A stretch of DNA of 64,000 nucleotides from Vicinamibacteria bacterium (GCA_964291235.2 OZ219816.1:704001-768000); one strand, 5' to 3'; positions 1-58,784 are shown, counted from the stretch's first letter. The notes: generated by a model not told the origin, from the letters alone. Program-made: numbers and translations.

Positions 1-115
1 GGGCTGTGCCGATCTGGAGATCGGCGTTCCATTGCGGTCGCCCGCCGTCGGTGCTTGGGAAGATCCGTCCCGTTGCCCCGCTTTGCGGACGATGCCGGCC
101 GGAGGCCGGCGCTCC
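1..115. repeat. REP/BIME-like cluster with two GC hairpins
   Basis: GCCGATC-TGGA-GATCGGCGTTCC (8-30) and GCCGGCC-GGA-GGCCGGCGCTCC (94-115). Bases 1-47 match the reverse complement of the 188-bp unit at 42836. Confidence 0.75.
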
Positions 116-49835: not shown

Positions 49836-49891
49836 AATACGCGAGTGAGCGTGGCGCAACCCGGGGCCGTCGGTTTCGCGCTCCCGCGCGA

Positions 49892-49906
49892 TGCCGACCG
49901 GAGGTC
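49892..49906 (+). repeat. Left att core (TGCCGACCGGAGGTC)
   Basis: Identical to 58708-58722. Confidence 0.8.
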
Positions 49907-49934
49907 TGCTTCTGAATGGATTTAAATTGCGATT

Positions 49935-49947
49935 TATCAATGAGTTA
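49935..49947 (+). promoter_or_regulatory. IHF consensus site inside left att
   Basis: TATCAATGAGTTA matches WATCAANNNNTTR. Confidence 0.7.
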
Positions 49948-50554
49948 CGTGCAGTTCTAAAATCCAGATATCACTGCGGCTATCACGCACGGCGATGACC
50001 GGGTCGCGTCGACTCTTGTAGGAACGGTCGGGAAGTCAAGGTAAGCGTTCGGTCGTGGGGGCATGGAGCAGACGCCCGTGTCACTCTCCCGCCGGCAGAG
50101 CCCGATGTTCCTGGTCCGGCGTTCGGCGGCCTCGTCAGGGCGGGGTAGCGGTGTTTTCCTGTGGAATGAGGGCGCCGACAACACCGCACTGCGCCAGCGT
50201 TTACACGACAGCGCGCAAATCAAGGACGACACGAGAATCGTGGGTGACCAGCACGGCGAGATCGCCTTGTTGTTCGACGGCGTCGCCCTCGCTCTTGGGA
50301 TGCGGCGCAGCGGTGCGAAGCAGTGAGGGACCACCACATACCCCCACGACCGAACGCTTACAAGTCAAGTCTGGAAGTCTGATCGGATGACAGCCGTTCC
50401 GCGGGGGCAGCGGCCACCGATCGGGCCGCGATGTCCCTGGGGACGGGACGCGGAAGGTGCATGCATGGCGGGCCTTCCGGAGGGCGCCATCGTATGCGTC
50501 CCGACGCCGGCCCGCAGGCCGGCGCCGGTCGCTGCCTCCGGACGGGGAGATTGG

Positions 50555-52442
50555 CTAACGATTGGGGCAGATTTCCGGCAGGTTCGGCGGGCTCTTCTCC
50601 AACCGGACGTGCGTCGAAAGCCACGTGTTCATCGGGACACCGCCAAGCGCCCACACTTCCACCCGGTAGTCGCAGGGCAAGGACTGCCCCGGGATCTGGA
50701 ACCATTCGAAGGCCGTCTCCGCCGGGATGGTCACGGTCCACCATTTCTGGTTGGGTTCGTTCTGCCATACCTGGATGTTGAATCCGTAACCCAGAACATT
50801 GTCGTTCCGGGAGACGAGAAAGCGGAGGTACGAATATTCCCCGTCAACCGCGTCGCGTCCGCCGGAGAGCGTCTTCGTGGCCGGTACGAGGGTTCCGTAT
50901 TGAGGCAGGCAATAGTCACTCGCCTCGACCTCGAAGTTTGCTGCAACCGGATCCGATCGGAGAGCACGGGCAACATCGCGCGCGCAGCTTCCGCCGGTTG
51001 TGATTTGCCAAGCGTTGCCGACACGGTCCAATCCCGCTGCTGCGCCCTTGTAGACAATCACCGTAGCCCCGTTGGCGTAGTCCGCAGTCGGCGTGGCGCC
51101 CGGTTTCGCCGTCAATCGGAGCCACTCGGTATGGAGCCGGATCCCGCTGCTGTGCCTCACCTCGGTGCTGAACTCCACGCTCGCCGGCCTCGCGGGCAAG
51201 TCCGGTTGGTCCGGTTGGCCTTCGACTCCGATAAGAATGAGATCGTCGTCCCAGACGCGGAGGAGCACGTCCGCCGTCCCGATCCTGAACGGCAACCGGA
51301 TGTCCTCGTAGGCCTCGATCTCCGCCGTGGCGAGGCCGCCGGGCTGCGTCGCCTTGCTGACCACGTTGTCGTCCGTGGTGACGGTGAGGAATCCGGAGAG
51401 CCGGATTTCGTTCGACGTGCCGTCCACGGACCAACCGATGTTGTCCTTCCCGCGGTTCATGCCCGTCAGGATCGTGCTACCCGAGTCGCTCCAGACCGCC
51501 GTCCAACCGGTAGGAACCGAGGCGTCGAAGGTCGGAGCGCCGGTCCCGATCAGAACGCCACCGTCGTAGATCTCAGCCAGGTTGCAGCCCTCGTAGGTGT
51601 CCACCACGAAGTCGCCGCCCTCGGCCCGCGCGCTCATGCGCGGCCGGGGGCCGCTCTCGGCGTGCGGCCGGTAGGGGTAGCCGCAGGACAGGTACATCGT
51701 GGACGTGCCCGTGGCATTCTGAGGATCCGCCAGCGAGTTCACCACCTGCTGCTGCCGGACCGGCTGCTGCTGCCGGACCGGCTCCTGCTGCGGGACCGGC
51801 GTCGGGGCCGCCTCGTCCTCGACGATGACGACCGTCCACACCACGCTGCTTCCGTTGATGTGCAGTCCGACGGACTTGCGGTCTCCCGTGTAATCGGAGT
51901 CGTTCGCCCGGGCGTCGTAGTTGAAACCGAGCGTGCCGTCCGCGTCCCACTTCACCGCGAGCGCGCTCGGGTTCCCGCCCCGCAGCGGAGACACATCGGC
52001 GAAGAGGTTCTGCCAGCCGTTGCTCGCCGTTCCCGTGTTGCCGCCCGGATTGGCGATCCCCGAGCACCGGCCCGCCGCGGAGCCGCCGTCGTTGTAGCGG
52101 CCGTTCTCGGGAATCCGGATCTCCCGCTCGGTAGCGCTCACCGCCACGATCTCCAGGTTGTCCGAGGAGTAGGGCCCCCAGCGGCCACCGGAGCGCGGAG
52201 TGCAGGTCTGCACGGAGGTCGCCAGGATCTGCATCTGCCCGCCCACGGACTGCGCCGTGAGGCCGTCGCCTCCCCCGCCCGCCGGGGGCGCCGCATCCGA
52301 GGCCGCGGGGGAGGGCGCTGCCGGAACGGGCGCGGTGGGGCTATCCGACCCGCAGTTCGCCATGAGGAGAACGGCCAGAGCCGCTACCGCAAGGCCGTGT
52401 CCGGTCCGGGCTTCGTGTGTGTGTGTGTGTGTGTGTGGTCAC
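50555..52442 (-). CDS. Large secreted/surface lipoprotein, frameshifted at a CA repeat (phase-variable candidate)
   Basis: 602-aa ORF from 52363 (MANCGSDSPTAP). In-frame upstream hydrophobic leader is closed by TGA at 52439-52441. GGAGGA RBS plus GTG at 52442 is out of frame across the repeat. Confidence 0.7.
51746..51799. repeat. 3 x 18-bp in-frame tandem repeat (PV-x-QQ-x linker)
   Basis: CTGCTGCTGCCGGACCGG twice plus a degenerate third copy. Confidence 0.8.
52415..52437. repeat. (GT)11G simple sequence repeat
   Basis: Directly visible; lies between the start codon and signal-peptide codons of the lipoprotein gene. Confidence 0.95.
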
Positions 52443-52786
52443 GATTTCCTCCGATATTCTCCGCCGCTTCCGCACGCGCGGCGCGGACTATAACGCCCAC
52501 CTTAGCGCGCCGGTCCAAAGAAGCAAGCGCAAAGGACTTCACAGCCATGATGCCCTCCGCGCCCCGTGCTGAGGCGGATCACCCTCCGAACGCCACCCCG
52601 CCCGCCGACTGTTCCGAGTCGGACAGCGCGCTATGTCCCCCCGCGATGTGTGGCCGGAGCGGCTGCGGGGACGCGAACTCATGGAGGAGTGGTCGGCGTT
52701 TGTCGCACGATCTTGACATTCGCCCAGGCCCCTGACGTGGAGTACAGGTTTCCCTCCAAGGTCGTCCTGAGCGCCGTTTCCGTTGT

Positions 52787-53104
52787 ATGGTTGCCTGCTT
52801 GGTTGAGAAGGCACTGACACGATTCCTGCTTGGCGCCGTTGCCGTACTCGGCGCTTGTGCGGGCCGCACTCCGGCTCCGGCGGTCGAGGGAGTGGTCCCG
52901 CTCCCGGAGAGCGAGGTCCGGATCTACGAAGGCGATGACCGTGTCCCGGTCCACGATGTGGTCGCGATCCTCAAGGTCTCGGAGGAGCCTCCGGAGCGTG
53001 AAGACCTGCGAGAGCGTGCGGCGGAAATGGGCGCCAACGGCATTCTGCTCACGTACTACCGGTCCGGCGAAGGCACGATCGCTGTCGCAATCCGAACACG
53101 ATGA
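52787..53104 (+). CDS. Small lipoprotein (YbjQ/heavy-metal-binding-like fold)
   Basis: Lipobox VLGAC; LRERAAEMGANGILL...AVAIR. Confidence 0.6.
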   Translation: MVACLVEKALTRFLLGAVAVLGACAGRTPAPAVEGVVPLPESEVRIYEGDDRVPVHDVVAILKVSEEPPEREDLRERAAEMGANGILLTYYRSGEGTIAVAIRTR

Positions 53105-53296
53105 GGGGCACCTCTTCGAGCGGCGGCGCGAGTCTTGGGAGAGTGGTCGGCGTTTCTGGACCGGGGTTGAGATTCGTCCAGGCGACGAACCGAATTCGCC
53201 CCCGGCAGGCTCGTAAACCCGGGGTCGAGTGTATTGACTGTGTCTCAGAGCGGCACCTGGCGGGCGGCTTCAGGTTCCCTCGCGAAAGGAGAGACG

Positions 53297-53551
53297 ATGA
53301 GCGACGACGGCAGCCCGGCCCCTGGGCGGCCTGTCACCCTAGAGACGCTCCTCCTTGTCACCTTGGTTGGCGCCGTGATCGGCGTGTACGTTCAGATGGG
53401 GAGTGTGCGCGTTGAAATGGTCGAGCGTGTTGCAACGGTGGAGCGTCGTCTACTCGAGGAGTTCGCGAAGACAGACGAGCGCCTCGCCAGCCTAGAAACC
53501 AAGATCGACATTCAGCAGGGTCCGGCTCAGTCTGGCAACGGAGGCCAGTAA
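53297..53551 (+). CDS. Small single-TM coiled-coil protein
   Basis: AGGAGA RBS; TM LLLVTLVGAVIGVYV; ERLASLET heptads. Confidence 0.6.
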   Translation: MSDDGSPAPGRPVTLETLLLVTLVGAVIGVYVQMGSVRVEMVERVATVERRLLEEFAKTDERLASLETKIDIQQGPAQSGNGGQ

Positions 53552-53649
53552 GGCGGCAATCAGCCTCTAGCGACTCCGACACTCCACCGGGCTCGCTGCG
53601 ACCCGAGACACACTGGCAGGTTTGGTACCCTTAGAGTTGTAGGGACAGC

Positions 53650-53895
53650 ATGAACAACGGGAACGGTTGGCGGAACCTCTGGGCCGGATTGATGGTTGCC
53701 CTCATGGTGGTGCTCGTAGGAGTGGTCGTCCAACTGCATGTCACGATGGCAGATTTCCGAGTCGAGGTCGGCCAAGAAATCGGCTCTGTCCGCCTAGAGA
53801 TGGAGCGTCGATTCGGAGAGGTGAATGAGCGTCTCGCTCGGATCGAAACCCTGATCCAGCGCCTCGATCCGGATCTTTCGCAGCCGGCGGATTGA
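53650..53895 (+). CDS. Small single-TM coiled-coil protein (similar to 53297)
   Basis: TM GLMVALMVVLVGVVV; ERRFGEVNERLARIET. Confidence 0.65.
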   Translation: MNNGNGWRNLWAGLMVALMVVLVGVVVQLHVTMADFRVEVGQEIGSVRLEMERRFGEVNERLARIETLIQRLDPDLSQPAD

Positions 53896-53941
53896 ACGTT
53901 CTTCGGGGACCGTAGGGGATACGCCCAGCCGTATTGGTTCC

Positions 53942-54271
53942 ATGGCAACGCTGGCCTTCCCGTTTCAGTGCGACGGCGGCGCGGATCGCGTGGCCTCAGC
54001 GCTCGGACTCCGGCAGTCCGGATCCGAGTGGATCGGCGACTGCCCCGCTTGCAAGCGCTCTGAGGCTTTGTCAGTCCGGGAGTCGCGCGATGGCCACCCC
54101 GCGCACATCCTTTGCGTCTGCCGGGGAGCGTGCGTGAGCGCGACCGCGTTCCGGACCGCTCTTGACGAAATCCTCGGTCCGGGGTCCCTGACCCAGCCGT
54201 TGCAGAGGAACACCCGGATCGCTGCCGATCTCCTGAGCTCCGGTGAGGGGTTTCCCCGAAAGCCCGAGTGA
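53942..54271 (+). CDS. Stand-alone primase-type zinc-ribbon protein or primase remnant
   Basis: LGLRQSGSEWIGDCPAC...LSV...CVCRGAC; no Toprim or helicase domain follows. Confidence 0.5.
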   Translation: MATLAFPFQCDGGADRVASALGLRQSGSEWIGDCPACKRSEALSVRESRDGHPAHILCVCRGACVSATAFRTALDEILGPGSLTQPLQRNTRIAADLLSSGEGFPRKPE

Positions 54272-54311
54272 GCCGGCGGGCTATGGGAGTCTGCTCCAGT
54301 CTGGATGGGTG

Positions 54312-55907
54312 TTAGCGGCTCTGACCGTGGTCCCGATCCCGCGTCCGGTCGCGCTGGCGGATCACCTCCAGCGCCCGCGCAACGTCTCGGCGAGCGTCTC
54401 GTAGTCCCGGTCCAAGCGCGTCATTTGCGCGCTGAGCAGCTCGACACGCCGCCGCAAGGCTTCGACCTGTGCGGCATGCTGCTCGACTTGCTGCCGCAAG
54501 ATTCCGCTCTCGGCGTCCTGCTGCTCGATGCGCCGCTGCAAGGCTCCGGCCAGCTCGGAGTGCCGCCGCTGCTCCTCGCAGTGCTGCTGCTGTGCCGTCT
54601 CGTACTCCTCGGACAACGCCCGCAAGGCGATCGTCAGTTGCCGTTCCAACTCGGTCATAGAGCTCCCTCACTCGCTCGATAGCTTCAAGGCAGGCCGCCC
54701 GCCCACGGTCCAGGGCGGATCCTCCAGCGCGCCGTCCGGCAGCACCAGGAACCGCTCCCCGTCGATCTCCCGTAGCGTCACGCCCCACGTCGTGTCCTCG
54801 ATCTTGGCCAGCGTGTCCCGGGCCTGATCGATCCGTACCTCCAGCATCGCCAAGGTCTCGATCTGGCTCTGGATGCTCGCCGACAACCATTGCATCAGCC
54901 CCCAGCTCCCGCCGCTGAACCCGAGAAAAAGGCTCAGGCCGACTACCAGGGGCCGCAGCCACGCTTTCAGCAGCATCCCGCGCATCCGCGCGACCGACGC
55001 TTCCGTATCGCTTTCGATGGTACGCAGCGCGCCATTCGCGACGGCGCGCAAGTTCTCGCCAAGCAGCCGCTGCTCGCTCGCCGCTGCCTCCTCGATCTGA
55101 CGGCGGTCGGTCGCCATCCGGTTCCTCATCCGGGCGGTCAAGTCGTTCGGGTCTGAAATCCTGCTCATACAGCGCTCCTTTCAGTCGCCACCGTTTTCCG
55201 CTGTCGGGATCGCGGGCGGTCAGGTAGTCCTTGCCCTGGCGGGGCACCTCGAAGCCGGCCTCCTCCAGCGCGGCAACCACGTCGGCGCGGCTCCGCACCA
55301 CGCCGTGCTCGACCCGCTGCAGCAGGTAGTCGCGGATCAGCTCGCGCGGGCCGGCTTCGTGCTCGAGCCCGGCCCGCAGCTTCGCCGCCTCCAGGTAGGC
55401 GCGATGGCCCGGCTGGTGCGCCCGGGCCCGCGTCGGGTCGTCCGGGCGGCTCCAGCCGTGCTGGTGGTTGAAACCGTCACGTAGCGGGCCGAAGGTCTTC
55501 TGCCAGCCGGGCGGAGCGATGTTCAGACTGCGGCCGGTCTCCAGGTCGCAGCGGGCGGTGAGGATGTGCACGTGGACCCCGGTGCCGTGCTCCCGGTGCA
55601 GGACCGCCGTCCAGGCGTAGCGGTCGGGCTCCAGTCCCGCCCAGGCCGTGTTCTCGAACTCGTCGAGGACAGCCCCGATCTGCGCGTCGGTGGGCCGGTC
55701 TTCCGGCGCCCACGCGATCACGCCCGAGGTGTACTTCCGCTCGAAGCCCAGGGAGTCGGCAAGGGCGGCCACCTGGTCCGGGTTGCCGCGGAGGACCTCG
55801 ATGCCCGGACGCACCCGTCCGGCGGAATCGCGTTCACCGACGAGATAGTCGGCCGAGGCGCGGGCGGAGCCGGTGCCGCCCGCAGCGAAGCTAATGTGCA
55901 TCGTCAC
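54312..55907 (-). CDS. mobA: MOBP-family relaxase, ColE1 MbeA-like
   Basis: GTGSARASADYL (catalytic Tyr), VLRGNP, KYTSGVIAW, LHREHGTGVHVHIL, DLETGRSLN, WRLKGALYE. Confidence 0.88.
   Translation of the reverse strand: MTMHISFAAGGTGSARASADYLVGERDSAGRVRPGIEVLRGNPDQVAALADSLGFERKYTSGVIAWAPEDRPTDAQIGAVLDEFENTAWAGLEPDRYAWTAVLHREHGTGVHVHILTARCDLETGRSLNIAPPGWQKTFGPLRDGFNHQHGWSRPDDPTRARAHQPGHRAYLEAAKLRAGLEHEAGPRELIRDYLLQRVEHGVVRSRADVVAALEEAGFEVPRQGKDYLTARDPDSGKRWRLKGALYEQDFRPERLDRPDEEPDGDRPPSDRGGSGERAAAAWRELARRREWRAAYHRKRYGSVGRADARDAAESVAAAPGSRPEPFSRVQRRELGADAMVVGEHPEPDRDLGDAGGTDRSGPGHAGQDRGHDVGRDATGDRRGAVPGAAGRRAGGSALDRGRAACLEAIERVRELYDRVGTATDDRLAGVVRGVRDGTAAALRGAAAALRAGRSLAAAHRAAGRRERNLAAASRAACRTGRSLAAACRAAQRANDALGPGLRDARRDVARALEVIRQRDRTRDRDHGQSR
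54362..54658 (-). CDS. MbeD/MobD-like protein, nested in relaxase
   Basis: MTELERQLTIALRALSEEY N-terminus typical of MbeD; coiled coil; alternate frame. Confidence 0.75.
   Translation of the reverse strand: MTELERQLTIALRALSEEYETAQQQHCEEQRRHSELAGALQRRIEQQDAESGILRQQVEQHAAQVEALRRRVELLSAQMTRLDRDYETLAETLRGRWR
54668..55168 (-). CDS. MbeB/MobB-like protein, nested in relaxase
   Basis: MSRI start, central TM, TWGVTLREIDGERFLVLP; alternate frame upstream of mbeD. Confidence 0.75.
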   Translation of the reverse strand: MSRISDPNDLTARMRNRMATDRRQIEEAAASEQRLLGENLRAVANGALRTIESDTEASVARMRGMLLKAWLRPLVVGLSLFLGFSGGSWGLMQWLSASIQSQIETLAMLEVRIDQARDTLAKIEDTTWGVTLREIDGERFLVLPDGALEDPPWTVGGRPALKLSSE

Positions 55908-56229
55908 GGTCTCCGCCGAGGCGGGCGACGACGCGCAACGAACGCTCGAACGCGACGAGGTTGGCGATCACCGTCACGGCTTCGGTGGCCGAGGTGTGGG
56001 TGTTGGCCCAGCGCGCGAGCTGGTTCAGGTTGTTGCCGATGCGGGCAACCTGGACGTTGCGCTCGCGCTCGATATCGGCCGCCGCCGCGGTCCAGGTGCG
56101 CGTCCGGGCCATCGCGTTCCGGAGCAGTGTGGACAGCGGGACTCCGGCAGCCGCGGCCTTGGCGCGCCAGGCGGCGCGGTCCGCCGGTGATACGCGGAGG
56201 TGGATCTGCACGGAGCGGCGCTCAGCCAT
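55891..56229 (-). CDS. mobC: MobC/MbeC relaxosome accessory protein
   Basis: RHH N-terminus; QVARIGNNLNQLARWAN. Confidence 0.9.
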   Translation of the reverse strand: MAERRSVQIHLRVSPADRAAWRAKAAAAGVPLSTLLRNAMARTRTWTAAAADIERERNVQVARIGNNLNQLARWANTHTSATEAVTVIANLVAFERSLRVVARLGGDRDDAH

Positions 56230-56239
56230 GGGCGCACCG

Positions 56240-56426
56240 GTGAGGGGGTTCAGGGGGCGGCGCCCCCCGTCCGCGCACCGCTTCGGCGGTGGCGCGGCGG
56301 GCCGGGGGTTCGGGGGGCGATGCCCCCCGGCCGCACGCTGCTCCCGCAGCGGCGGATGCCGGGGGTTCGAAGGGGGGCGCAGCCTCCCCTCGCCAGTCCC
56401 ATTGTGTACACAATGGGTATGCTGGC
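56240..56426. other. Candidate oriT
   Basis: Perfect 20-bp palindrome CCCATTGTGTACACAATGGG (56398-56417) followed by TATGCTGGC (nic-like); three G/C hairpins between it and mobC. Confidence 0.6.
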
Positions 56427-56582
56427 CCTCGTGCCTTAGTGGTCATCAGGAAGGCACGAAGCCTGCCCCGAGTCCCGTGACGAGTGTTACCAGCCTATCG
56501 ACGGATAGGCTGCAAATGAGCGATCCGCCCTTGGCGTGTTATTGGCTTGCCGGCCACCGGCCGGACGCGAGAACGGGCTCGC

Positions 56583-56861
56583 TCAGCTGCCGCCGGGGAA
56601 GTTCCGGAAACCCGGTGCGGGACGGAAACGCACCACGCGTCCCGGGCGAATGCCCGCCGGCTCGCCGGTGCGTGGATTTCGCGCCTTTCCCGTCTTGCGG
56701 GGGCGCGTGTGGAAGACCCCGAACCGCCGGAGCACCACACGGTCGCCGCGCGCCAGCGCGGAGGCAACGGATTCGAACAGCGCCTCCACGGCGTCCTGCG
56801 CGGCGGGAGACTCCAGATTCGCCGCCTCCATCGCCCGGTCGACGAGGTCCGCCTTCACCAT
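56583..56861 (-). CDS. HU/IHF family DNA-bending protein
   Basis: MVKADLV, GDRVVLRRFGVF, ARNPRTGE, VRFRP. Confidence 0.9.
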   Translation of the reverse strand: MVKADLVDRAMEAANLESPAAQDAVEALFESVASALARGDRVVLRRFGVFHTRPRKTGKARNPRTGEPAGIRPGRVVRFRPAPGFRNFPGGS

Positions 56862-57104
56862 GCGGAGCGCATCATGGGCGACACGCGACATCGAATAGTC
56901 TCTCCGACCACAGGAGCTGGAGAGCCGGACTCCGGTGACCTCCTCCACCCATCCCGCCGCTGGCGGCTCCGGCGGCAGTTGCCGCCGCCAGTGGCACCCC
57001 GACGCCGCCGCCCAAACTGATGCACCAACGGGTTCGCTCGCGCTGATCGTCATGGGAAGGCTGGCCGCGCCGTCCGGGCGGATTCGGTGACGGAGACTGG
57101 GCCG

Positions 57105-57221
57105 GTGGGAAAAAGACGCCGCCGGCAGCCGAGGTCAGTCTGGGGGTTGCTCGGGGTCCTGTTTGCCGTGTGGCTCGCCTTTGCGGTCGTATCCGTTGCC
57201 CTGCTCTCGGGGAGCTGCTGA
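57105..57221 (+). CDS. Putative 38-aa basic hydrophobic peptide
   Basis: GGAG RBS, GTG start; MGKRRRRQPRSVWGLLGVLFAVWLAFAVVSVALLSGSC. Confidence 0.35.
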   Translation: MGKRRRRQPRSVWGLLGVLFAVWLAFAVVSVALLSGSC

Positions 57222-57349
57222 GGCCCGGAGCCTCGGTCCGGGCCGGAGATCGCGTGTGGCTTGAAGTCACGGATAGCTTGGGCCGCTACCGGGCTGCGGC
57301 GGCAGCCGGTAGAGGCCAGTTGCGCGGTCGCGGAACCTCTGGCGCTACC

Positions 57350-58522
57350 TCACGTTCCGGCCAGGAACGCGGCCCACTGCTCCATGAGCGCCCGCCGCCG
57401 CTCGAACAGGTCCGACCGCCGGTAGGCGGCCTCGATGGCGTTCGTGTTCACGTGCGCCAGCGCTAACTCGCACACCTCACGCGGAGCGTCCGAACACTCC
57501 GCCGCCCAGTCACGGAAGCTGGAACGGAAGCCGTGCGGCACCGCACCGATCCCCAGATCCCGGACCAGCTTCGCGATCGCCCGCTTGGACAGCAGCCCGC
57601 CCCGCGCCGAGGGGAACACCGGCCCCGCACCGTCCGCGAGCGCACGCGCCTTCTGGAGCACCGCCAGCGCCCCGCTGGACAGTGGAACCCGGTGCTCCCG
57701 GTTCGTCTTCATCCGCTCCGCGGGAATGCGCCACTCCTGCCGCTCAAGGTCTATCTCACTCCACCGCGCGCCGCGCACCTCGCCGCTCCGGCACGCCGTC
57801 AGCACCAGGAACTCAAACGCCAGTACCGTCGCCGGATACGCGCCCGACCCCCGCACCGTCTCGATGGCTACGGCGACCTCCGCGTACGGGAGCGCGGGGA
57901 GATGGCGCACCGGCACTCCGTTCCTGGGCAGGGCCGCCCCGATGGCCTCCCCCGCCGGGTTGTCCTCCCGGTAGCCCTGCGCCACCGCCCAGCGCATCAC
58001 TGCCGAGATCCGGTGCCGCACCCGACGCGCGGTCACCCGCTTCTCATTCCAGATCGGGAGCAGGATCCCCATCACGTCCGCCGTGGCGATCCGGTCCACC
58101 GGCCTCCCGCCGAGCTTCGGCAGGGCGTAGTCCCGGAGCGTCCCGCGCCAGTCCTCCTCGGACCGGCTTCCGTTCTTCCAACCGGCCCGATGCACGGCGA
58201 TCACCTTCTCGACGGCGTCCTCGAACATCGGGACCGTCCGCTTCCGGCCGGTCACCAGTTCCCCGCGTCGCCGGGCGGCGAGGTTCAGGGCGCACTTCTC
58301 GCGGGCTTCGGCCAGGCTGACGTGGGGCCATGATCCGAGTCCGAGGTTGCGCTGGCGACCGTCCACGCTGATGCGCTGCGCCCAGGACTTGGCCAGGTGT
58401 CCTCGGGCCGTATGCTTGACGAGGAGTGAGAGGCCGCCGGAGCCGCGTCCGTCGCCGTAGCGTCCGGGGTGCTCAATGGTGGCGACGAAGCGGGCGGAGA
58501 GGCGATAGGGTCGCTCCATCAT
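57350..58522 (-). CDS. Tyrosine integrase, P4/IntA-like with arm-binding domain
   Basis: YGDG..GLSL, LGLGSWPHVSLAEAR, LTACRSGEV, RMK..REHRVPL, HGFRSSFRDW, LAH, AY. Confidence 0.93.
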   Translation of the reverse strand: MMERPYRLSARFVATIEHPGRYGDGRGSGGLSLLVKHTARGHLAKSWAQRISVDGRQRNLGLGSWPHVSLAEAREKCALNLAARRRGELVTGRKRTVPMFEDAVEKVIAVHRAGWKNGSRSEEDWRGTLRDYALPKLGGRPVDRIATADVMGILLPIWNEKRVTARRVRHRISAVMRWAVAQGYREDNPAGEAIGAALPRNGVPVRHLPALPYAEVAVAIETVRGSGAYPATVLAFEFLVLTACRSGEVRGARWSEIDLERQEWRIPAERMKTNREHRVPLSSGALAVLQKARALADGAGPVFPSARGGLLSKRAIAKLVRDLGIGAVPHGFRSSFRDWAAECSDAPREVCELALAHVNTNAIEAAYRRSDLFERRRALMEQWAAFLAGT

Positions 58523-58636
58523 GGCTTTTTCGTTCCTGAGGAGGGTTGTTGGTTCCTACCACTACCAAGTGGATATCAGAAAAACGGCGGGAACTATCGA
58601 GCTGCGGTCGTCCTCGGATGGAACACTATAGCACGA

Positions 58637-58649
58637 TAACTCGTTGATA
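58637..58649 (-). promoter_or_regulatory. IHF consensus site inside right att
   Basis: Reverse complement is TATCAACGAGTTA; 12/13 identical to the left site. Confidence 0.7.
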
Positions 58650-58707
58650 TACAACATGGATCGAAGCATGCAGAGGCACCAATCGGAATCTCATAGAACA
58701 GCAGAAG

Positions 58708-58722
58708 TGCCGACCGGAGGTC
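58708..58722 (+). repeat. Right att core, continuing into REP right arm GGCGGTCC
   Basis: Identical to 49892-49906. Confidence 0.8.
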
Positions 58723-58784
58723 GGCGGTCCAGGTCCACGCGCCATGCGGGCTCCCGACTGGCCACGTCTCCTAGAATCCCGGCG

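Follow-up and report, generated by a model that had tools for sequence, protein, structure and literature searches.

A P4-type tyrosine integrase of an integrative mobilizable element in a Vicinamibacteria genome appears to use REP hairpins as attachment sites

The window of the present study, that is, the whole 64,000-nucleotide stretch of DNA that was analysed, belongs to a Vicinamibacteria bacterium (GCA_964291235.2; G000:C2:704001-768000 of the host genome G000, which measures 3.45 Mb and is 90% complete). At positions 49892-58722 it holds an element, hereafter E1, of 8,816 bp with one copy of its terminal repeat counted, whose two ends divide a repetitive extragenic palindrome (REP) between them. 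The terminal repeat is the exact 15-mer TGCCGACCGGAGGTC, found on the plus strand at 49892-49906 and 58708-58722, just as the initial annotation had stated, with no third copy in the window; the next-best match is a free REP at 93-107 (two mismatches), and shuffled windows gave a mean of 0.58 matches at two mismatches or fewer. Close to the right repeat, and transcribed inward, lies the gene of a P4-type tyrosine integrase of 390 amino acids (57350..58522, minus strand), the start of which is 186 nt from the hairpin.

Outside the two repeats stand complementary halves of a REP. Beyond attL the chromosome reads ...GGTTTCGC-GCTCCCGCGC-GA (49872-49891, plus strand), i.e., the left half of a REP composed of GGTTTCGC, hairpin 1 and GA, which matches the conserved left flank of 87 REP copies; beyond attR it reads GGC-GGTCC (58723-58730, plus strand), i.e., the REP remainder GGC and the tail GGTCC. 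The left half occurs outside attL only and the tail outside attR only, and the DNA internal to both 15-bp repeats is not REP-like. The attL core (49892-49906, plus strand) covers REP hairpin 2 from its left arm through the loop to 4 nt into its right arm, and the attR core (58708-58722, plus strand) together with 58723-58725 makes up the complete hairpin 2, which folds into a stem of 7-8 bp with a 3-nt loop. Once the outer flanks are joined, comparison of the rebuilt site with the free REP at 90-115 shows 3 differences in 26 positions, two of them at paired stem positions (A/T vs G/C), so that the compensatory pair claimed earlier is borne out on reading the sequence. The free REP itself, an unoccupied copy of the canonical variant used for comparison, extends over 66-115 (plus strand).

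Two further motifs lie just inside the ends. The 13-mer TAACTCRTTGATA (R at position 7) has just two copies in the window, in inverted orientation, where shuffles predict 0: one, TAACTCATTGATA, 29 nt inside attL (49935-49947, minus strand), is a candidate arm-type or terminal motif, and its partner, TAACTCGTTGATA, lies 59 nt inside attR (58637-58649, plus strand). Being specific to the element ends, this inverted 13-mer supports the borders of E1. A GGAAT-N5-GAAC repeat adjoining the right core (58685-58699, plus strand) may serve the integrase as an arm or core-proximal site; taken alone it is not above chance inside the window, and in most relatives it is kept as GGAAC-N5-6-GGAAC. In agreement with the earlier remark that no tRNA or transfer-messenger RNA (tmRNA) gene is visible at either end, ARAGORN detected none in the 64-kb window, and no Rfam family reached its gathering score there.

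The integrase carries the arm-binding domain PF13356 (E 2.8e-8), the central, SAM-like domain PF22022 (E 3e-23) and the catalytic domain PF00589 (E 8.2e-17), all above the Pfam cut-offs. By eye, its translation displays ACRSGE, ERMKT, HGFRSSFRDW and AAYRR, which we take to hold the catalytic R, K, HxxR, H/W and Tyr nucleophile positions (here R, K, HxxR, W and Y), assigned without alignment to a solved catalytic domain. A PDB search matched the protein only to central-domain structures, and the matches to the XerA/integron-integrase and XerC models of NCBIfam were weak (E about 2e-4 to 4e-4; 1.9e-4 for XerA/integron-integrase). The neighbouring gene (56583..57053, minus strand) encodes an IHF/HU-like DNA-bending protein of 156 amino acids (PF00216, E 1.2e-20), whose top NCBIfam match, IHF alpha, scored 64 bits, under the cut-off.

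A mobilization region follows on the same strand, with a NikA/MobC-like relaxosome accessory protein of 112 amino acids (55891..56229; PF21983, E 1.6e-12; PF05713, E 1.2e-9) and an MbeA (ColE1)-like relaxase of 531 amino acids (54312..55907; PF03432, E 6.1e-6), which aligned over residues 3-489 with the MbeA model NF047848 (E 5.1e-29, under the curated cut-off). Nested in the relaxase gene in another frame are an MbeD/MobD-like open reading frame (ORF; 54362-54658; PF04899, E 8.8e-6) and a second ORF (54668-55168), and codon-position GC indeed shows a frame change within the gene; ColE1-type Mob regions also nest ORFs in another frame within the relaxase gene. By gene content, E1 appears to fit the label of an integrative mobilizable element (IME), having its own integrase with att repeats at both ends, and a relaxase with accessory genes and no mating-pair apparatus of its own; the other ORFs of the 8.8 kb gave no match to a type IV secretion system (T4SS) family in Pfam, and an oriT was not identified.

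Toward the left end, codon-position GC points to a cargo ORF of 602 amino acids (50555..52363, minus strand) and, by its phase, to an ORF of 87 amino acids (50063..50326, plus strand), neither of which had a match in Pfam, NCBIfam, PADLOC or the ESM Atlas. On the plus strand, 50387-52735 forms an ORF of 782 amino acids, longer than any other in the element, that is probably no gene, the codon-position GC fitting the opposite 602-amino-acid ORF. BLAST within the genome found the 325 bp around the 87-amino-acid ORF (50038-50362) to be 90-93% identical to three other places (C2:241228-241550, C2:128178-128406 and C2:520963-521051), one of them in a second element, E2 (see below), and the conservation of this block far exceeds that of the remaining element.

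The target of the E1 integrase is a true REP of the host genome. The hairpin-2 motif GCCGRCCGGAGGYCGGC has 87 copies in the genome vs 0 in a backwards control, and the aligned copies define a unit made of GGGAGTTTCGC, a variable hairpin 1, GCGAT, hairpin 2 (7-bp stem, GGA loop) and GCTCC, in which GCGAT precedes hairpin 2 in 80-83 and the tail GCTCC or GTTCC follows it in 80-81 of the 87 copies. At the E1 locus and in its orthologues the REPs were seen in extragenic position. The genome also holds one gene for a Y1 transposase resembling a REP-associated tyrosine transposase (RAYT; a single PF01797 match of 33.2 bits, over the cut-off), with arrays of one REP variant on either side, in opposite orientation, and such a gene between inverted REP arrays is the usual mark of a REP/RAYT system. 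In this RAYT locus (L093; G000:C1:15500-17300) the inverted arrays have a period of about 123 bp and a hairpin 2 of the form GCCGGCC-TGG-AGGCCGGC; a similar variant is present in part at positions 1-30 of the window.

Conversely, the REP-like hairpins might belong to the elements, the genomic REPs being footprints or solo att sites of the integrase; attP does share 11-19 bp with the REP hairpin, and it is the element-side arm that completes the hairpin at attR. We regard this as very unlikely, since genomes hold hundreds of REP copies with no element nearby, the second hairpin and the conserved flanks of REPs have no counterpart in the elements, the elements use either hairpin 1 or hairpin 2 of one REP unit, and the RAYT-like gene between its inverted arrays represents the usual mechanism by which REPs spread. 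Moreover, one related genome (G014) holds 139 copies of the E1 core hairpin and 0 integrase matches at E<=1e-150.

Three full-length integrases of E1 type are encoded in the host genome, namely those of E1, E2 (86% identical) and E3 (81% identical). E3 (G000:C2:1590987-1594491, 3.5 kb) is bounded by the 13-mer CCGACCGGAGGTC, the same core as that of E1, with REP hairpin 1 beyond its left end and the REP tail beyond its right end. E2 (G000:C2:232900-241700) has the relaxase region and the 325-bp left-end block in common with E1 and adjoins a different 7-3-7 hairpin, GCGGTCC-GCA-GGGCCGC, which is the hairpin-1 type read in reverse. None of the 59 tRNA and tmRNA genes of the genome lies within 3 kb of E1, E2 or E3. 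Two distant paralogues (51% and 56% identical) are situated directly beside tRNA-Ser genes, and these two islands showed no distal repeat of 13 bp or more except the other tRNA-Ser gene.

Further paralogues were noted in the same genome. The region G000:C2:557000-565000 holds a full-length paralogue (41% identical) and several integrase fragments 67-80% identical to the E1 integrase, three of them with stops, and looks like a graveyard of decayed elements. Paralogues at C2:1673050 and C2:568637 (44-45% identical) have an upstream palindrome, GAAAGGGGG...CCCCCTTTC, followed by the REP-like GGGAGTTTCG, and the same palindrome and REP-like sequence are found upstream of the integrases of two loci (L062 and L065, about 80% identical); this palindrome may be a further repeat target.

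The hairpin used by E1 and E3 is an A..T variant (GCCGACC-GGA-GGTCGGC) with 4 complete copies in the host genome: two are the attR sites of E1 and E3, one lies in an intact REP at C2:1903689, which is a candidate free attB, and one is solitary. The solitary copy (C2:376906) has no element-like flank, and an IHF-like fragment is found 1.5 kb away. Occupancy accordingly amounts to 2 of the 4 A..T-variant sites vs 0 of the 83 other copies (Fisher p about 0.002, by hand calculation). The initial annotation had proposed a multicopy REP family as attB; the REP as target stands, but only this one hairpin variant was found to be used. So few copies of the exact hairpin could also speak for integration at one unique site, at which the REP character would be incidental. 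Such locus specificity is, however, scarcely credible, as the same core is found at two loci, those of E1 and E3, near-identical integrases are present at different loci of one contig with differing outer flanks, and across the genus the integrase is matched 107 times at E<=1e-150, with 15 of 16 genomes represented and as many as 18 matches in a single genome.

Copies of the E1 core hairpin number 194 in G006, 245 in G013, 139 in G014 and 127 in G015, compared with the 4 in G000; likewise, the hairpin-1 form used by E2-type elements has 2 copies in G000 vs 32 of the local 6-3-6 form. That E1 and E2 sit in variants rare in this genome and common as REPs elsewhere suggests import from another species, and E1 thus probably arrived by horizontal transfer from a species in which the matching variant is the dominant REP.

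To see how far this habit extends, we turned to related integrases. The species-representative genome collection yielded 274 relatives, the best 80 loci of which were used, almost all of them from Acidobacteriota metagenome-assembled genomes titled Candidatus Marinacidobacterium or Vicinamibacteria; 73 had a usable integrase start, and all counts rest on these (L043, L069, L075, L078, L083, L090 and L091 were dropped for an incomplete integrase start or less than 100 nt upstream). In 54 of the 73 loci the sequence beyond the integrase start reaches a REP-class hairpin after 164-189 nt, vs 167 of 36,000 random 80-nt windows of the same loci (0.46%). This hairpin is hairpin 2 forward in 13 loci and reverse in 16, hairpin 1 forward in 11 and reverse in 10, and a second hairpin-1 type in 2 + 2. 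Beyond the hairpin the REP continues as expected, with its tail, with hairpin 2, or with hairpin 1 and then GAAAC. Within the 1.06 Mb of loci, the outward half of the hairpin is multicopy (median 5) and the element-side 15-mer single-copy (median 1). Both ends could be recognized in six loci (L018, L048, L049, L050, L052 and L058), where the direct repeats span 11-19 bp, loop included, the shortest being the inner 11 bp of the hairpin; here, too, the REP halves are split between the ends, for hairpin 1 or 2 and in either orientation. One of these loci, L050, has three possible partner sites, of which the 5,032-bp one is common to L052.

These loci also bear on the refuting conditions that the initial annotation had set for itself. 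One was that the two 15-mers stem from independent REP copies near an island with true ends elsewhere, which the frequency of REPs in intergenic DNA (87 copies), and their arrays in the same intergenic region of relatives, could make plausible. This coincidence is extremely improbable and can be considered largely refuted: the partial REPs are complementary halves, each at its own end; the DNA inside the repeats is not REP-like and carries the element-specific inverted 13-mer; the same split recurs in E3 and the six two-ended loci; and the hairpin keeps its fixed distance from the integrase start in the 54 loci. Another was that homologous integrases insert at tRNAs. Close relatives were found in REP hairpins, and only distant ones (38-56% identical) at tRNA-Ser- or tmRNA-like ends. 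REP hairpins appear to be the normal attB of a clade of integrases (about 73% identity or more) that comes mostly from one sponge-type genus of Acidobacteriota.

The locus in sibling species offers a further view. The initial annotation had expected an intact REP at the empty locus of related genomes, and in four siblings (G005, G006, G007 and G012; flanks 80-86% identical to G000) the 8.8-kb element is indeed absent, the two flanking genes lying 212-640 bp apart and separated by REP units. In three of them (G005, G006 and G007) the orthologous place still carries that left REP half, and relatives carry arrays of REP units in this intergenic region. Four sequencing runs of one study (X5-X8) contain the E1 region and were compared as Logan contigs. 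In each run the contig of the left flank stops at 49902, and contigs of the right flank start at 58659 or 58763; other contig joints had sides of 20-60 nt and were taken as repeats or relatives. No circular attP-like form was seen among the metagenome contigs with close relatives of the integrase. Three sponge-metagenome runs share sequence words with the window, in small shares.

With the split REP, E3, the siblings and the 54 of 73 loci in its support, the original proposal of a tyrosine integrase that targets a REP hairpin and not a tRNA is upheld, and we consider it highly likely that E1 is an IME put by its own P4-type integrase into hairpin 2 of a pre-existing two-hairpin REP, and that its clade normally uses REPs.

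Several points weigh against this interpretation. Hairpin 2 at the locus in the siblings is different or degenerate, so that only part of the expected empty site was recovered, and the exact empty site has to be inferred because the closest comparison genomes are of other species. The contigs of the four runs break at the core, with neither a joint of about 49900 to about 58710 nor a circle joint, and contigs cannot show rare forms. A direct repeat of 10 bp or more was not found at the far end of E2, and a clear second end was seen in only 6 of 53 hairpin-bearing loci, many contigs being short and some elements perhaps exceeding 10 kb. REP patterns and target classes alike were drawn up only after the data had been inspected; a looser hairpin criterion (at least 6 of 7 pairs, GC-rich arms) selected 53 of the 73 loci but also 27% of random windows, and was dropped. 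A REP-class hairpin is lacking in 19 of the 73 loci (7 distant ones at 60% identity or less, 7 of a clade that branches within the REP-targeting one, 2 with another palindrome and 3 odd or cut), and in this inner clade (L057, L059, L063, L066, L070, L071 and L072) the start of a lipoprotein-like gene (MKSFTGKF...) replaces the hairpin. Finally, the term "mobilizable" in the initial annotation holds for the gene content, but the 90%-complete host genome gave no match to the type IV coupling protein family PF02534 or to VirB4 (PF03135), and hence no candidate for a mobilization helper. Two side observations may be added: several contigs of the lipoprotein-gene clade are binned to other phyla, and the host genome holds at least three relaxase-bearing elements despite the absence of PF02534 and PF03135 matches.

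How the target class is distributed among the integrases was followed on a tree of 72 sequences (quick IQ-TREE, target labels set by eye). The class is clustered, the 7 labels needing 18 changes vs a mean of 46.5 for shuffled labels; the REP classes alone account for at least 16 changes, and flips between forward and reverse targets occur between nearly identical integrases. Only the loop (GGA vs TCC) distinguishes the attP region of E3 from that of L050, and in one contig two copies of one element sit at different REPs, with one loop base setting the copies apart (GGA vs AGA). Comparison of another pair with identical integrases in one contig, L046 and L047, gave a tangle of repeats with no clean ends.

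Near-identical integrases that occur in both orientations with a difference in the loop alone (GGA vs TCC), and the two element copies with their differing loop base, invite the thought that the REP is recombined not as duplex but as a folded hairpin, on a single strand or in a cruciform, like attC of integrons, and the targets are indeed perfect 7-bp stems with 3-nt loops. This nevertheless seems unlikely to us: ordinary direct repeats of 11-19 bp including the loop stand at both ends, as for a duplex attP x attB exchange; the architecture is that of arm-binding lambda/P4-type integrases, with arm-like repeats and weak matches to integron and Xer models; and single-strand folding energies are unexceptional (z about -1.5).

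More distant integrases reveal a different habit. Among 53 metagenomic relatives of 38-47% identity, 16 have, located 128-175 nt (in one case 312 nt) from the integrase start, a dyad GGCGG-N-CTCCGCCA, the outer arm of which we read as the probable 3' end of a tRNA-Ser with CCA; 4 carry, at the equivalent distance, GCTCCACCA, which we take to be a tmRNA-like end; 20 have another dyad and 10 none. Outside the count of tRNA-Ser-like ends, 2 further distant relatives have a whole tRNA-Ser upstream of the integrase. Throughout, the layout is kept: integrase start, arm region of about 150-190 nt, and dyad core of 17-20 bp. Given distant relatives at tRNA-Ser- and tmRNA-like ends, the REP-targeting habit looks derived from the targeting of tRNA/tmRNA ends. 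As a separate observation, 20 soil-type metagenome loci (L131, L136-L142, L147-L155, L165, L169 and L172; about 42% identical) share the dyad GGC[GT]GCCCGGGA[CT]ACCGCC, located about 150 nt from the integrase start and followed by a conserved flank.

These comparisons give rise to a possible mechanism. The outer 4 bp of the stem, GCSG...CSGC, are found in every target class, and the inner stem and the loop differ. The palindromic outer stems would supply two inverted core-binding sites, and the inner 9-11 bp, that is, the upper stem with the 3-nt loop, would form the crossover region, identical in attP and attB, with the asymmetric loop setting the orientation of insertion. The arm-type repeats near both ends and the IHF-like protein of the element may assemble the intasome. 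The A and T of the E1 variant would sit just outside the putative central 7 bp, a position that would explain why canonical copies are not used. If only the inner core must match, a lineage could switch hairpin or flip orientation through a change in attP with the protein unchanged, which would explain the frequent switches between close relatives. We infer these roles of outer stem, inner core and loop, and retargeting by attP, from comparison of natural sites. It is further conceivable, at somewhat less than even chances, that REPs offer a fixed palindromic scaffold retargeted through the inner core of attP, that the elements form a natural matched series of integrase, attP and attB, and that REP variants are perhaps shaped as a moving target.

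A precedent for a tyrosine integrase with a REP as attB was not found in the published literature, subscription journals and supplements lying outside the search. We rate as new the attachment-site class and the unusual capacity for retargeting, the enzyme family and the element type being already known. Island tyrosine integrases are the textbook case of single-site specificity, usually for tRNA genes, and REPs have until now been known as targets of transposases only; an attB that is a multicopy palindrome changes views on how the specificity of integrases evolves. Expectations on the number of islands per genome shift as well, with one integrase family reaching 18 copies in genomes of 3-5 Mb, and so do those on where island borders are to be sought, as finders based on tRNAs would miss all such elements. 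Natural pairs of close integrases with different cores or orientations constitute a comparative data set for core recognition, useful for integrase engineering. Additionally, REP/RAYT biology gains a cost and a possible selective force, and the sponge-symbiont Acidobacteriota turn out to carry a large, previously unannotated mobilome.

As for known systems, the integron integrase IntI recombines a folded single strand at attC, has no arm-binding domain and bears an IntI-specific insertion in its catalytic domain. The E1 integrases resemble it as tyrosine recombinases that act on many imperfect palindromes sharing structure more than sequence, and differ in the ordinary direct repeats of their elements and in their P4-type architecture. 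In lambda, saf (site-affinity) mutants, obtained in the laboratory at secondary sites, have a changed attP overlap that redirects integration; the E1 clade would similarly be retargeted through the crossover region without a change in the protein, as its natural diversity suggests.

For the targeting of tRNA and tmRNA genes, sublocation classes were reportedly distinguished by Williams in 2002. P4-type (IntA/CP4-57-like) island integrases are described as targeting such genes (Islander database, PMC4383910). E1 is like these islands in domain architecture, in an integrase gene that adjoins att and is transcribed inward, in its short direct repeat and in the dyad core of about 17-20 bp; in its relatives at 38-56% identity the integrase start even lies equally far from tRNA-Ser- or tmRNA-like 3' ends. 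Unlike them, E1 has as its attB a REP hairpin and no stable-RNA gene, in place of the 3' part of a tRNA or tmRNA gene that is usual for the P4 family, and the target of its family is multicopy (127-245 copies in some hosts) and switches often, with many elements per genome.

REPs as targets are known from insertion sequences (ISs) of five families, such as IS1397, ISKpn1, IS621, ISPpu9/10, ISPa11 and others (Tobes and Pareja 2006, PMC1525189), with ISPpu9 documented in a preprint as well. The E1 family shares with these ISs the use of REP palindromes as specific, neutral, multicopy landing sites. However, the REP-targeting ISs (IS3, IS110, IS4, IS256 and IS5) are 1-2 kb long and have DDE or, in IS110, DEDD transposases as their sole mobility genes, the account in PMC1525189 from which this is taken naming no tyrosine integrase, whereas the E1 family consists of islands of 2.5-9 kb with a relaxase and cargo, and a tyrosine integrase is the sole recombinase encoded in E1, which has no DDE or DEDD transposase. 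The dusA-specific integrases are an integrase clade retargeted to a non-tRNA site (PMC4482086). They and the E1 clade are alike as island integrases whose conserved attB is of a new class; dusA, however, is a single-copy protein gene, and the target of the E1 clade is a multicopy extragenic repeat with interchangeable sub-targets.

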